From NCBI GenBank assembly GCA_000165345.1, contig CM000434.1, forward strand, positions 736,001-800,000: a stretch of DNA of 64,000 bases, in the 5' to 3' direction. The notes under the pieces were generated by a model. That model did not search any database, was not told the DNA's origin, and saw only the letters and a program-made list of their open reading frames with translations. Position 1 is the stretch's first letter; every line of letters begins with the position of its first letter. Positions 27,658 to 63,268 of this stretch are shown piece by piece. The translations under genes and the position numbers were made by a program.

Positions 27658-27704
27658 CCACATTGCAGTTATTTTTTTAATTGCATGCATGCAATTCAAT
27701 GTGG
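27658..27704. repeat. Perfect 18-nt palindrome AATTGCATGCATGCAATT (27679-27696) flanked by inverted CCACATTGCA / TGCAAT..CAATGTGG
   Basis: Read directly from the sequence. Centred on a GCATGC doublet. It sits in the RPN11–GBE intergenic region, with TATATACCGGTAATGCAAAATTTGCAAG following at 27720-27748. Confidence 0.6.
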
Positions 27705-44942: not shown

Positions 44943-45856
44943 CCTCTTAATTTAAAAAGAAATTAGACCTGTGAAATCTTCTATAACAGAAATAGCAAGT
45001 TAGTATTTTTTTTTTTTCTGAGTGGAAAAAAAAATCAATTAACTTGTTTCTAAATTAATCCAAACTTTCTCCTTCAAACAAAGTTTCTGTTTTTCTTATT
45101 TATATTTAATAGAAAACAGAAAATAATTAACCGGTCTTTTTTTCAACCTTATATAATACTTTACTTATATTAAGTTAATATAATAATTAATTAATATTTA
45201 ATTTGAGACAAAACATTTAGTAGACTATTTATTTCAATGAGACAGTATTAATAAATTATTTTTTTTAATTAAAAAAATTAATTATTTGTTTATATATTAA
45301 AACTTTTCTCTATTTATTAATTCCTTTCATTAAATTGTCTCTATTATTACTATTAATACCGGTTCGGTACCCCAATTATGGCGCCACAATGTTCCCGCCA
45401 CATCGTGTGCTACATTATTTAAGAAGAAAATAATGGAAAAAAAAGGAGAAAAAAGGAAATGGAAAGAGAATAACAGAGCAAAATCAGAAATAATTATGTT
45501 TATATTAGGAGATGATTAATTTGATTTCTAGAATGGAAATAATTTGTTGTTTGTGCTTTGTATCGAATATAAGAGGGGAGAGGTGCATTGCATGCATTTT
45601 GAGATCTTGAAAAATAATTTATTTGAACAAATTATTTTTCATTATTGTTTTTTTTCTTTTCTTTCTCTTTTATTGTAGAATTTGGAAAAAAAGTAATTAG
45701 TAAGTTCATATATCTTTTAAAATATAGTATTTTTGGGATTATCTGTACTATTCTTTTAAAATAAGGAAAGAATATATTGTAGCAGGAGTAATCCTGGAAT
45801 GGTTTGTATTATTTCTATTGAGATGTTTGGGATTAAGTTTGGAGGAAATAAAAGTA

Positions 45857-47029
45857 ATGGAAGATTGGCTTCCTGAGTGGGTAAAAATAGGAAACTATGA
45901 ATTGAGAGAAATATATATACCAAAGAGTAAAAAAGAGTTGGGAATATGCCAATATAATATATTAACTTCCGGTAATAAGTTGAAAAAAGATCACGAATGG
46001 TTTTTAGAGAATCGAATTGAGTATTCAAGAAAGAATGGGTATTGTTATTTTCATTTGGATTTAAGTTTTGGTGAGGTTAGAAATCCTCATTATTGGAGAT
46101 ATATTGGAATAATTAAGTTATATAAAAAAGTTCAAGGCTTACTTTCTGATCATAAAGAGCATAATTATTTGGTACTATATATGGATTCCGATACCATGTT
46201 TTCAAGATTTTCTGTAAGAATTGAGGATTTTCATGAAAAGATGAAAGATTCATTTCTATATCTATCAGTGGATGATAATTGTGAATTACAGCATTATTTA
46301 TTAAATGTTGGAGTCTTATTAATGTCTTTAAGAAGATTAGAGACATTAATATTTTGTATTCAAGTACTGGCTTTACAGAAGACTCAGTCTATACTATCTT
46401 ATTCATCAGAATGGAGTAGATCGGGTTTGAATGATCAAAACATTGTTATTTCTGTTTTAAATGATACAGGAAGGTTGGATATTGAGAATATACAAAGTTA
46501 TTGTTTGAGGAAGAAGAATTCATCTTGGTTGGATAATGAAGATCAGTGGATTAATTTGAACTATTCAAAGCAAAACAAAGGAGTAGTGGTTGTTCCCAGT
46601 TTATATTTGAACCAAATTATAAGGATGGATTATATAATGAAATCAAGCGAGTTAAAAACCAATCTTTGGTTAGAAAGGTCATGGATTATTCATTTTAGTG
46701 GATCTAATAGACTAGAACAATGCTTTATGATACAAAAACTTTGTTTAGATAGGATTAGAAAGTTCAAAACAAAGTATAATCATTATTTTAAGGAATGTCC
46801 AGAGAAAATGGAAGAATTGATGACCAAAAATGAACTTAAAAAGATTGAAACTCTATTTTCATTGAAGATGGATTCAAGTTTAGATCCTAATAACTATATT
46901 GGACAAAATTATTTGGTATGGATTAAAGATCTCGAACAGATAGATCTTGGAATAAGAAACTTAAGTAACAGATACTCCATTCTAATTAAAAGGTATGTTT
47001 TAATAAGAATAATAGAAAGGAAGTCTTGA
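45857..47029 (+). CDS. GT34-like glycosyltransferase (DxD motif 'YMDSDTMF'); possibly extended by two 3' exons to 47457
   Basis: 'HNYLVLYMDSDTMFSRF' resembles the GT34/GT32 'W(L/M)DSDA(M/L)F' DxD block; '…WIIHFSGSNR' resembles the C-terminal HFAG block. The track start 45818 is TTG; the first ATG is 45857. No N-terminal TM seen. Possible continuation: GTATGT donor at 46993, exon 47105..47246, GTAAGT donor at 47247, exon 47326..47457. Both exons are stop-free in phase. Confidence 0.45.
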   Translation: MEDWLPEWVKIGNYELREIYIPKSKKELGICQYNILTSGNKLKKDHEWFLENRIEYSRKNGYCYFHLDLSFGEVRNPHYWRYIGIIKLYKKVQGLLSDHKEHNYLVLYMDSDTMFSRFSVRIEDFHEKMKDSFLYLSVDDNCELQHYLLNVGVLLMSLRRLETLIFCIQVLALQKTQSILSYSSEWSRSGLNDQNIVISVLNDTGRLDIENIQSYCLRKKNSSWLDNEDQWINLNYSKQNKGVVVVPSLYLNQIIRMDYIMKSSELKTNLWLERSWIIHFSGSNRLEQCFMIQKLCLDRIRKFKTKYNHYFKECPEKMEELMTKNELKKIETLFSLKMDSSLDPNNYIGQNYLVWIKDLEQIDLGIRNLSNRYSILIKRYVLIRIIERKS

Positions 47030-47608
47030 GAAAATTGAATATTAACTTTAATCTTTAATTACTATAAATTTTGCTATTTTAATATTGTGATTTCATTATT
47101 TTAGAATAATTAAGCTTCTAAAACTAAGTAGAACCAGACAATTCACTCAAAAATCAAAAAGAGAACTAGTAGGAGCAGTTCTACAATTCTTAGAGAATTC
47201 AAACAAATTTGGATTAATTTTTGAGAAACTATATCTCACAGGAATAGTAAGTTTATATAAAATCTTTTCTCTATTTTCCTCATTTTTCCAATTTATTTAA
47301 TTTTTCTTTTTATTCCCTCTTTCAGTCAAACAGAAGAACAATAAAGTATGAAGCAAAAAATGCTATTGAATTCTCTAATATATTCAACTTCTTTTCTCTA
47401 CTAAACAAATGCCCTAATAATTTTGAATATGAAAAAAAATTTACCTCAAAATTTTGAATCACGTTACCTTTTAAGATCACATAAAAATATCCGATACCTG
47501 CAGAATGCATGCATGCAACTGTGCATGCATGTGACCGGTAATGACATGAGAAAAAAATTTGAAGAAATATGGAAAAAAATTAAATAAATTTTATGTATTT
47601 TTTTTATT

Positions 47609-48681
47609 CTAGCAGCAAAATAAGTTTTTGAGGTTTATAATGATTCTTTCTACACAATTAACAAGTTGATGATTATCAAAAATGATGGCAGAGTTTTCAA
47701 GTATTGAATGAGGTATATAGTCGTCTTGTAGGCCTAAGGAGATAGTTCTAATTCTTCCAGCTCCTCTTTGGTTTTCTGGAGAATTTAGTTGATAAGATTC
47801 AGCTCCATAATTGTTTGTAAGTTCTTTGACTCTTTGTTCAAGTCTAAAACATCTTACTCTAAGCCCATCATTTTCTAATCTAAATTTCTCCACTAAAGTG
47901 GAAGTTTCATTAGCTATACTTTTTAAATTATCTTTTTCAAATTTTATCCTTTTTAATGATTCTATAATATCTTTAGATTGTTTATATTCTTCTTTTAAGC
48001 TTTGAATATGAGATTCTCTGAAGTTTTTTTTTCAATAAAGAAAATAAAACAAAATAAGATCAAGTCAAATTCTTAAATAGTGGCTAAATATTGTTTAAGT
48101 TTAACTTACAGAATTGATATATTGTTACTCTGTTGACTTATTTGAGATCTTAAATTTGAGTTCTCCACTTCCAATTGTCTGTTTTTCTGATTCCATTTTT
48201 GGATTCCAACTAGTTTCATTTTAAAAAAATATATATTTTTCATTCATTTCATAAAACTAAACTTACCTTGACTTTCAAATAGAAGATTCTGTATATTCTC
48301 GGTACCCTCAATTTCACAAATTGATTTCCATAAACCTTGAAATGATATAATTTCTTCTAAAGCTATAATAAATTGTTTACACTTTGAAATGATTTGAAAT
48401 TGCTCCTCTAAGCCTTTTTTTAAATTCAAATTTATTTGATCCTTCACATCTAACTCTTCCTGAAGTATATTATTTGTCTCAAGATATAATTTAGATATAC
48501 ACTCTTCACATATTAATTTATCGTATATTTTATATTCAACTGTATTACTTATGTTGCAATTTGAACATTTAACTCTTCCACACAAAGTGCAACAAATTTT
48601 ATGAAACTCATCTAAATTCATACATTCTTCACATATTTCAGTATCTTTCATTAATTCTCTACTTTCAATATTCCTATTCAA
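47609..48681 (-). CDS. Cys-rich zinc-finger + coiled-coil protein (hypothetical); 3 exons merging two listed ORFs
   Basis: Exon A is 48267..48681 (MNRNIESRELMKDTEICEECMNLDEFHKICCTLCGRVKCSNCNISNTVEYKIYDKLICEECISK…FESQ + 1 nt), followed by a GTAAGT donor (plus 'acttac' 48261-48266). Exon B is 48110..48209 (VGIQKWNQKNRQLEVENSNLRSQISQQSNNISIL), preceded by acceptor 'ctag' and followed by a GTAAGT donor (plus 48101-48109). Exon C is 47609..48017 (ESHIQSLKEEYKQ…VEKFRLENDGLRVRCFRLEQ…NLFCC*). Phases are consistent and the product is 307 aa. The N-terminal CxxC×4 pattern is B-box/Atg14-like. Confidence 0.55.
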
Positions 48682-49223
48682 ATATAAAATGCATGAAATT
48701 CTTTTTTTACTATGATCTTTTTCTTTTTTCCACTTACTCTGGTGAGTTTTCTCTAATTTCTCTTTCTATTGGTCCTGGACTCCAACTCATTTCTCTTTTT
48801 TTACTTTTTTTTTCTTTTATTTTTCCTTTGAATCTTTAATATTCAATTTTTTTAAGTTATTGCATTTTTATGCATATTCACCCATTCCCCCCTTTATTGT
48901 CCTCTATACCGGTGTTTACCGTTATTTTTTTTTGTGGACAAAAAAAGTGAGCGGGAAACATCGAACGCCGGTATATAAATATTAAAGCATTAAAAAAAAA
49001 AATATTTTGATTAGTCATTTTTGACAGGAAGAACTTTGTATATTTTTTTTTTCCTCAAAAGTTTTAAATTGAGGAAAATATAAATTTATATTCAAAGTAC
49101 AAAGAAGCCTGTACTCTGATACCATAGGATATAGTCGAAGCAATAAACATTACATTAATAAAGGAGTGAGGAGGGTTTAGAAAATTACAAAATTACTACA
49201 CAATTTAAGCAAGTCAGAAGGCA

Positions 49224-50618
49224 ATGGATAACACAATGATGGAGGATAAAGGGGATTCACAAGTGGAGGTTTTCTTTTGGACGAAGATTAAAGATCCAAG
49301 ACTTCAGGCTCCTGAAGGATCCTTTATGATAGATTCAAAATCTGGAAGAGCGGAACTTTCAGAATTATTAAATACCTTATTAGAAACAGAAAACAGGATT
49401 GCTTTTGATTTTATTATAGATGAAGTGTTTTTGAGAGGTACTATTTATGATTATATGAGACAGAATGAGAAAACAAGTGAATCAAAACTTAAAATAGAGT
49501 ATCTTAAAACCCTTGGAAAACCATCAATAAAGATTTTAGATAAGCAAAAGGATTGGATTAGGAGCATCACATATGGAATAGAGACAGATAATCCCATGGT
49601 AGTAGCAGGATTCTACGATGGAAGGATTAGATTTTATGATACAATTTCACATAAAAAAGATAAGAAAGTCAAATTGGACGAAGATGATAATATTAGAGAC
49701 AATAAAAGTCAAACATTTGAATTTAATGTCAATGAATTATTACCAGAAGGAGATTCTACTTCTGTTTTTAGAGTCCAATCTCAACAACTAAATGATTCCG
49801 AGTTTTCCAAAGTTTGGGCCTCAACAATGAGCGGTTCCATTATAGGTTTAAGCTATTCAGCAAAGAGACAAGAATGCATTTTGAAAAGTGTTAAACTCAA
49901 AGCCAGTATTGCTCCTATTGAAGCTCTTTGTACTGTAAAAGGATGCGATTCAATAATATCAGCAGGAGATGCAAATGGTAATGTTTTAGTATTTTGTAAG
50001 GAGTCCACAGATAATGGTACTTTAAATAATATAGAAAATACAAACAGCTTAAATTGTACTGCTAAGATAAAAATCCATTCTTCTAACGTTACAGATATAC
50101 TATCTTTGGGAGATAATTTGATTTCCTCAAGTTTGGATGGTAATATTAAGGTGTCTAAAGTTTCATTAGGAGAAGCTGTTTGCGGGTGGAATATTAAATT
50201 TCCAACATTCTCTTTATCTACTCAAAATTCCATGGTAGGAAATGTAATTTGTACTTCTCATGATGATGGTAAAGTTAGGATTTGGGATTTAAGGGCAGGA
50301 GCAACCAGCCAAATAGACCTTAAAGCAAAAAAAGATATGGGTTTAGTATCTTTTGATAGAAATACTCGTTTTGTCCATAGGAGCAGACTTCTTGCTCATA
50401 AGGAAGTTGTTCCACAAGCTGTTTGGAGTCCATATAGTGAATATATGATAGGGTCAGTTTCACATGACATGGATTTGAAAATCCTGGATATAAGGTCACC
50501 AAATTTACCACTTCAAGCAGCAAAAACTGACTCAAAATTACTTAGCCTCTGTTGGATGAATGAGCATACCATTTATACAGGAGGCTCAACAGGAGAACTT
50601 ATAGTTTGTTCATTTTAG
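49224..50618 (+). CDS. YTM1: Ribosome biogenesis WD40 protein Ytm1/WDR12 (N-terminal ubiquitin-like NLE domain + WD repeats)
   Basis: N-terminus 'QVEVFFWTKIKDPRLQAPEGSFMIDSKSGRAELSELLNTLLETENRIAFDFIIDEVFLRGTIYDYM' matches the Ytm1/WDR12 NLE domain (…FDFLI.GELLRTSL.DYL). Followed by seven WD-like repeats (e.g. …SHDDGKVRIWDLR…). Confidence 0.75.
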   Translation: MDNTMMEDKGDSQVEVFFWTKIKDPRLQAPEGSFMIDSKSGRAELSELLNTLLETENRIAFDFIIDEVFLRGTIYDYMRQNEKTSESKLKIEYLKTLGKPSIKILDKQKDWIRSITYGIETDNPMVVAGFYDGRIRFYDTISHKKDKKVKLDEDDNIRDNKSQTFEFNVNELLPEGDSTSVFRVQSQQLNDSEFSKVWASTMSGSIIGLSYSAKRQECILKSVKLKASIAPIEALCTVKGCDSIISAGDANGNVLVFCKESTDNGTLNNIENTNSLNCTAKIKIHSSNVTDILSLGDNLISSSLDGNIKVSKVSLGEAVCGWNIKFPTFSLSTQNSMVGNVICTSHDDGKVRIWDLRAGATSQIDLKAKKDMGLVSFDRNTRFVHRSRLLAHKEVVPQAVWSPYSEYMIGSVSHDMDLKILDIRSPNLPLQAAKTDSKLLSLCWMNEHTIYTGGSTGELIVCSF

Positions 50619-63078: not shown

Positions 63079-63248
63079 TCCCAATATTTTGGTACGAGTG
63101 CTCTATGACTGTACCGTTGCCATTAATAAAACTACGACCACTTTTTACCTTCCTGCAATTCTAATAATAATAAATGAATAAATAATAATAGTAATTAGTG
63201 TTTATAATAGAATTAATTATTTTCTAAATTGCATAGTTTCTTTGTTTT

Positions 63249-63268
63249 GCATGCATGCATGCATGCAT
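63249..63268. repeat. (GCAT)5 microsatellite followed by an E2F-like box TAGGCGGGAAAC (63281-63292)
   Basis: 'gcatgcatgcatgcatgcat', in the convergent 3'–3' junction between the kinase and the partial minus gene. Confidence 0.6.

Follow-up and report, generated by a model that had tools for sequence, protein, structure and literature searches.

FCP of Plasmodium falciparum (PF3D7_1460100, Q8IKN0, C-terminus QRRMCNIM) is described in Table 4 of PMC5141570 and in passages of PMC11173270 and PMC6667170 as a prenylated protein of the food vacuole that binds phosphatidylinositol 3-phosphate (PI3P), and the same passages have its localization depend on farnesylation. Here we analyzed a window of 64,000 nucleotides from chromosome 6 of Cryptosporidium parvum (31.5% GC, AT-rich), in which positions 47609..48790 of the minus strand are the gene cgd6_3360. 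We consider it likely that cgd6_3360 is a four-exon Cryptosporidium descendant of apicomplexan FCP, with a decayed zinc finger and a presumed role as a scaffold. Comparison of sequences establishes the gene structure, its conservation throughout the genus, a homology to FCP that takes in the second half of the finger and the coiled coil, and the loss of the PI3P motifs and of the C-terminal CaaX box. The primary reference for P. falciparum FCP is reportedly McIntosh et al. 2007 (J Biol Chem 282:11499).

The joined coding sequence of cgd6_3360 is 969 nt long, has one terminal stop and encodes 322 residues. Its four exons, three introns and main protein regions are, in window coordinates:

48738..48790, minus strand: exon 1, 53 nt, with the ATG at 48790..48788; codons 1-17 and the first 2 nt of codon 18; in-frame join.
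48674..48737, minus strand: intron 1, 64 nt, GTAAGT..AATAG; joins to 48673 in frame.
48267..48673, minus strand: exon 2, 407 nt, encoding the N-terminal tail, the zinc module and the first helix.
48210..48266, minus strand: intron 2, 57 nt, GTAAGT..ACTAG.
48110..48209, minus strand: exon 3, 100 nt.
48018..48109, minus strand: intron 3, 92 nt, GTAAGT..TTCAG.
47609..48017, minus strand: exon 4, 409 nt including the stop TAG at 47611..47609.
48490..48645, minus strand: putative degenerate FYVE-type zinc module, residues 28-79, with Cys pairs C32/C35, C46/C49, C54/C57 and C73/C76.
47813..48489, minus strand: conserved coiled-coil core, the part in common with FCPs, residues 80-255; contains introns 2 and 3.
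47612..47674, minus strand: predicted C-terminal amphipathic helix ending ...NLFCC, residues 302-322, in place of the Cys/Arg-rich tail and CaaX box of other FCPs.

The spliced translation is 100% identical over 100% of its length to CAD98377.1, QOY41221.1, WKS78450.1 and KAL5368214.1. The deposited name of this protein is 'putative zinc finger and FYVE domain-containing protein' (Cgd6_3360 in UniRef). At the DNA level the gene has 0 mismatches to the chromosome-6 records CP029785.1, CM109966.1 and BX526834.1, in which the annotated gene spans 1182 nt, equivalent to window positions 47609..48790. Both the four-exon model and the FYVE-type label of cgd6_3360 are already public in GenBank (CAD98377.1, QOY41221.1), and a literature search for 'cgd6_3360' found no papers.

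The relationship to FCP was evident from profile searches. An exhaustive search, covering 1.8 billion representative proteins, returned matches outside Cryptosporidium with E-values of 1e-14 to 1e-4, and these were 'FYVE zinc finger domain-containing proteins' of Besnoitia and Toxoplasma as well as unnamed transcriptome or metagenome proteins. The hmmsearch matches to FCP relatives had E-values of 9e-15 to 1e-4. The non-Cryptosporidium matches carry canonical Pfam FYVE domains (63-76 bits), and every non-Cryptosporidium member of the alignment has the motifs WVP(D/S), (R/W)KHHCR and (V/Q)R(V/I)C. One match, P0024, is a haemosporidian member of the FCP family, with E 1e-107 to P. reichenowi FCP (P0151) in a single-sequence search; clustering at 90% identity groups the P. 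reichenowi protein with that of P. falciparum 3D7. Alignment of the Cryptosporidium family to the FCP family by hhalign gave a probability of 99.4% and E 5.8e-22 over 212 columns (43-254), covering the second half of the finger and the entire coiled coil, and a pairwise BLASTP comparison of the C. parvum protein with P. reichenowi FCP gave E 3e-16. A search with a mixed alignment was dominated by generic FYVE proteins (RUFY1, RUFY2), and apicomplexan FCPs were not listed in it. The initial annotation of this DNA had named 'FYVE-like' just as something to check for the N-terminus, and it is this homology, to the FYVE finger of FCP, that the profile searches found.

These alignments make the Cys module of cgd6_3360 a degenerate version of the FYVE finger found in apicomplexan FCPs, to which it is homologous. 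The arrangement reported initially, of four N-terminal CxxC pairs and then a coiled coil, was borne out, as the latter appears as long helices in the AlphaFold2 (AF2) model. In C. parvum the eight cysteines of the four pairs align with the FCP FYVE cysteines and have FYVE-like spacing. The PI3P signatures WxxD, R(R/K)HHCR and RVC are absent from every Cryptosporidium protein aligned; at these sites C. parvum has LMKD for WVPD, HKICCT for RKHHCR and L-IC for VRVC. In addition, the Cryptosporidium finger has deletions of 2-3 residues in the loop preceding the basic motif and in the next strand. Pfam assigned no significant family to the C. parvum protein, on which the coiled-coil noise was below threshold. 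Its FYVE score (PF01363) was 9.3 bits (E 1.6) with a cut-off of 27.8, in a sub-threshold alignment of residues 28-80 to profile positions 7-65, and the protein of C. muris, C. andersoni and C. serpentis reached 23 bits, also below the cut-off.

The zinc module is the fastest-evolving structured region of the protein, with 29-33% identity to C. parvum in C. felis, C. xiaoi and C. ryanae. Pairs 2 (C46/C49) and 4 (C73/C76) are invariant in the genus, and pairs 1 and 3 are partly or wholly gone in C. meleagridis, C. felis, C. xiaoi and C. ryanae. In the cross-braced topology of FYVE fingers, the ligands of one zinc are pairs 1 and 3 and those of the other are pairs 2 and 4, so that the loss of pairs 1 and 3 is the pattern expected if one whole zinc site had been lost.

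A functional FYVE protein, whose PI3P-binding module targets the dimer to PI3P-positive membranes of endosomes just as in Plasmodium FCP, would account for the deposited name, for the presence in C. parvum of all eight cysteines at FYVE-like spacing, for the Pfam alignment of residues 28-80 and for a homology to true FYVE proteins that is secure. We regard such a protein as unlikely, however, given the replacement of all three PI3P signatures, the shortening of the loop that precedes R(R/K)HHCR, the distance of the 9.3-bit score from the cut-off of 27.8, the loss of zinc ligands of pairs 1/3 from four species and the much faster evolution of the module than of the remaining protein. A finger that descends from that of FCP and has decayed is the reading we prefer.

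The AF2 model of the domain by itself (pLDDT 75.5) had two short beta-hairpins followed by a helix. Foldseek comparison of this model with the PDB gave nothing significant (best E 0.5), and the nearest structural matches were PHD fingers rather than FYVE. The weak structural neighbors were FYVE/PHD cross-brace fingers that included melanophilin, rabphilin-3A and the FYVE domain of ALFY, which would put the module in the FYVE/PHD cross-brace class without discriminating inside that class. A separate observation on zinc-site 1 comes from C. meleagridis, which has three Cys-to-Tyr or Cys-to-Ser changes there despite 92% overall identity to C. parvum.

Repeats of CxxC followed by a coiled coil also bear a superficial resemblance to Atg14, and the initial annotation had taken the module for B-box/Atg14-like Cys repeats, in a candidate tethering or autophagy/trafficking factor. 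Membrane trafficking is still our best guess for the function, but the Atg14 family assignment did not survive, and the B-box/Atg14 label has no Pfam support. A divergent Atg14 would be welcome, since Plasmodium has no detectable Atg6, Atg14 and Vps38 orthologues (PMC13497265, 2026), and the C. canis orthologue has a faint Pfam ATG14 match (11 bits, E 0.23). This match, however, is the best of any orthologue, for a cut-off of 33.2, and the B-box profile (PF00643, cut-off 24.1) reached 8.4 bits (E 3.4) in one orthologue; in a Pfam scan of the C. parvum protein listing matches to E=10, neither ATG14 nor zf-B_box appeared. Furthermore, the zinc module aligns column for column with FCP FYVE fingers and the homology continues through the coiled coil. 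The proposed start of such a gene, a TTG at 48681, sits in an intron-exon junction, being composed of the tail of intron 1 and the first bases of exon 2, and the deposited product begins 109 nt upstream. TTG is implausible as a eukaryotic start codon. We therefore find it very improbable that the locus is a three-exon gene from 48681 that encodes an Atg14/Vps38-type subunit of an autophagy or PI3-kinase complex.

The coiled coil is the conserved core of the protein and is under strong constraint, far above that on the zinc module: its helices have 66-78% identity to C. parvum in the most distant species (C. felis, C. xiaoi and C. ryanae). The AF2 model built with the genus alignment had a disordered region at 1-30, a beta-rich zinc module of moderate confidence at about 31-73, helices at 74-137 and 142-255 (pLDDT 84-94), a disordered linker after these helices and a C-terminal helix at 302-320. 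Foldseek comparison of the full-length model with the PDB gave nothing significant, and the Cryptosporidium family profile found nothing below E 0.25 among PDB sequences.

The C-terminus is the second region in which these proteins depart from FCP. In the Plasmodium FCPs, as in the full-length homologues from Toxoplasma and Besnoitia, the C-terminus consists of a Cys/Arg-rich stretch and a CaaX box (CNIM, CHIM, CVIQ or CVVQ). The Cryptosporidium C-termini are FCC, CCC, LYC or FCW, with that of C. felis extended, and no CaaX box was present in any of them. The C-terminal helix has a hydrophobic moment of 0.58. At the C. felis locus the stop at the conserved position is absent and the model continues for 12 residues (…PCFPQDDREFTNRS), so that not every species of the genus has the terminal-Cys arrangement. 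Geranylgeranylation of the terminal CC in the manner of Rab proteins was considered and rejected, as the Rab fold is absent; Rab geranylgeranyltransferase needs a Rab fold bound by REP.

The structure of the gene was derived from reading frame, splice sites and comparison with related species. For an open frame of 322 codons the probability by chance is about 1e-11 (stop frequency 0.076 per codon at the base composition of the window), which excludes a chance open frame. Retention of any of the three introns adds an in-frame stop in C. parvum: immediately for intron 1, after 'GKFSFMK' for intron 2 and after one codon for intron 3. The initial annotation had joined two minus-strand open reading frames, 48244..48681 and the GTG-initiated 47609..47893, into one gene. 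Both exist, and the in-frame joins and the identity to the deposited protein support their belonging to a single spliced gene. We also confirmed the GTAAGT at 48266..48261 and the in-frame joining of 48267..48681 (415 nt), 48110..48209 (100 nt) and 47609..48017 (409 nt) into 924 nt, with introns of 57 and 92 nt bounded by GTAAGT..AG. These three segments do give the 307 codons plus stop on which a 307-residue product had been based, but the real product has 322 residues, and three exons were one too few: the upstream exon at 48738..48790 and its 64-nt intron had been missed, and with them the ATG at 48790. The polypyrimidine-AG ascribed to both introns holds only loosely for the 57-nt intron, which has a T7 run, then an A-rich stretch and CTAG. 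Among the Logan open reading frame fragments screened as possible spliced transcripts, 0 spanned a junction, and those examined read through the introns, as expected of genomic or unspliced material.

The same structure was found across the genus. We compared the orthologous loci of C. ubiquitum, C. canis, C. ryanae, C. felis, C. xiaoi, C. meleagridis and a Cryptosporidium sp. from a Sequence Read Archive (SRA) assembly, and sought in each the combination of exons whose translation matches the deposited protein. Four exons with phases 2,1,2, an exon 3 of exactly 100 nt and GT..AG introns were present in 7/7 annotated species, with lengths of 48-74 nt for intron 1, 52-72 nt for intron 2 and 54-92 nt for intron 3. 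Alignment of the locus DNA showed conserved exons broken by three unalignable blocks of variable length with GT and AG at their edges, and the introns were less identical than the exons in most comparisons. Exon 1 is weakly constrained in sequence but keeps its ATG, its phase 2 and its GTAAGT donor (the donor in all annotated species). Substitutions in exon 2 were concentrated at the third codon position (0.47 vs 0.24 and 0.20 at the other positions), as they were in exon 4 (0.44 vs 0.22 and 0.13), and exon 3, which has 72-95% DNA identity to C. parvum, changes mostly at the third codon position. In C. meleagridis the intron-1 acceptor AATAG has become AATTG; the model there uses an AG 12 nt downstream, in frame, and has 4 residues fewer.

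Several deposited models of the gene differ from this structure. The original Iowa II entry, XP_627681.1, which is still in databases, has 135 residues and corresponds to exon 2 read from M26 and continuing into intron 2. In C. hominis, intron 2 has no in-frame stop, and the models OLQ18910.1 and PPA63558.1 (342 residues) keep it as a 19-residue insertion; other C. hominis models (323 residues) splice it. If the 135-residue protein were real, the downstream open reading frames would be independent or non-coding. The presence of XP_627681.1 in databases is in line with such a truncated product, as is an intron 2 whose length in C. parvum (57 nt) is a multiple of three and which is open in C. 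hominis and retained in the 342-residue models. Set against this, conservation at the locus is highest in exons 3 and 4, which have coding-type substitutions and phases conserved in seven species and are homologous to the FCP coiled coil, while intron 2 varies from 52 to 72 nt and shows no sequence conservation. We find it extremely improbable that the products are separate or truncated, and we retain the four-exon gene. In a further model, C. tyzzeri TRY51070.1 (285 residues), exon 3 is translated in the wrong frame ('GNWNPKMESEKQTIGSGELKFKISNKSTD') and some of the coiled coil is left out, probably through mis-splicing in the annotation. We flag the Iowa II (135 residues), C. hominis (342 residues) and C. 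tyzzeri (285 residues) models of this orthologue as faulty.

If cgd6_3360 does descend from FCP, its product would dimerize through a parallel coiled coil and serve on endomembranes as an adaptor or scaffold, in the manner of FCP, and this scaffold would have descended from a PI3P effector. Of the zinc module only a structural or protein-binding remnant would be left, with one or two zinc ions and no longer able to read PI3P, and the protein would no longer be farnesylated. Contact with the membrane might be made by the amphipathic C-terminal helix with its terminal cysteines (possibly S-acylated), or by partners bound to the coiled coil. As to how this state arose, we put forward, at slightly less than even chances, that FCP lost its PI3P-reading FYVE pocket and its farnesyl CaaX anchor together in the Cryptosporidium stem lineage, with the coiled coil remaining constrained and the finger decaying to one zinc site in several species. 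Were this true, the protein would count as a naturally occurring separation-of-function variant, a 'pseudo-FYVE', the coiled coil would carry the essential activity of FCP, and that activity would have been rewired in a parasite without an apicoplast. Cryptosporidium is described as having no apicoplast in a passage of PMC6667170.

Some points weigh against the descent and the loss of function that we favor. The splicing of cgd6_3360 was deduced from cross-species comparison and deposited annotation, and the internal ATG at 48651 (M26) might conceivably be the start, given the poor sequence conservation of exon 1. Loss of PI3P binding is read from the motifs only, and atypical FYVE-like fingers can bind other lipids or proteins. 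In addition, cgd6_3360 may be a paralogue of FCP rather than an orthologue. The suggestion of S-acylation is weakened by C. felis, which lacks the terminal Cys arrangement.

Overall, this is an ordinary gene whose split reading frames had been spotted correctly at the outset and which public annotation resolves more completely. The only point that is mildly new is what appears to be an orthologue of FCP whose FYVE finger has decayed and which has no prenylation box. In Cryptosporidium, cgd6_3360 would correspond to the FCP of Plasmodium, which is a PI3P effector that is farnesylated and is relevant to antimalarials that target prenylation. With neither the PI3P motifs nor the CaaX box present, the database label 'FYVE domain-containing' probably claims more function than the protein has, and we caution that Plasmodium PI3P or prenylation biology should not be transferred to Cryptosporidium for cgd6_3360.

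The surroundings of the gene are also conserved, with the order eRF1, NLE-WD40 (Ytm1-like), FCP-like gene, unknown gene and RPL32e kept in all the Cryptosporidium loci fetched. The divergent neighbor at 49224..50618 (plus strand) is intronless, lies 433 bp from the start codon of cgd6_3360 and encodes a 464-residue NLE-domain WD40 protein (Ytm1/WDR12-like ribosome biogenesis factor). The convergent neighbor, at about 45857..47457 (plus strand), has introns, a 469-residue product in current annotations and no Pfam family on record; its largest open reading frame (45818..47029) gave a weak match to the GT34 (GMA12/MNN10) galactosyltransferases (E 0.01), and the older BX526834 annotation extended it to overlap the 3' end of cgd6_3360.

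A palindromic octamer, TGCATGCA, has 16 copies in the window where 0.61 are expected (47506..47529, 27682-27693, 63248-63267 and others). Three overlapping or adjacent copies (47506..47529) lie in the gap of about 150 bp between the convergent 3' ends of cgd6_3360 and its neighbor, and the related ACATGCATGCA occurs at the corresponding place in the Cryptosporidium sp. locus from the SRA assembly. We take the octamer to be a known over-represented apicomplexan cis-element, here in a 3' intergenic position.

Of the described systems that the protein resembles, Atg14/Vps38 (PF10186) likewise has N-terminal CxxC repeats, then a coiled coil and a C-terminal amphipathic segment, but Atg14 has two CxxC pairs where cgd6_3360 has four that align to FYVE, and the match was not significant. 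The helices that flank the finger in the Rab effectors rabphilin-3A and melanophilin/Slac2-a bind a Rab; the module differs from these fingers (Pfam FYVE_2), which are related to FYVE but do not bind PI3P, in that no sequence homology to them was detected. Canonical FYVE domains (PF01363; EEA1, Hrs, Vps27) share with it eight cysteines in four CxxC pairs at comparable spacing and the predicted order of two beta-hairpins and a helix, although cgd6_3360 has no PI3P signature motif of any kind and its scores are not significant.

The comparison with FCP itself, whose homologues in Toxoplasma, Neospora and Besnoitia are named 'FYVE zinc finger domain-containing protein', is the closest. The Cryptosporidium proteins differ from FCP in being without WxxD, R(R/K)HHCR and RVC, in the short deletions of the finger and in scoring below the Pfam FYVE threshold; at the C-terminus they also have neither a polybasic Cys-rich tail nor a CaaX box, the latter being the site of farnesylation in Plasmodium. 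Some Cryptosporidium species keep just one zinc site, and the three introns of cgd6_3360 are a further difference. What the two have in common is a similar size (322 residues here and 325 in P. falciparum FCP), an N-terminal Cys8 finger with LQE(E/D)L..QIN..LK..L.E immediately after it, a coiled coil of about 170 residues and, toward the C-terminus, an R.RC..LE motif, a T-x-(A/S)-x-G motif and an end that contains cysteine.

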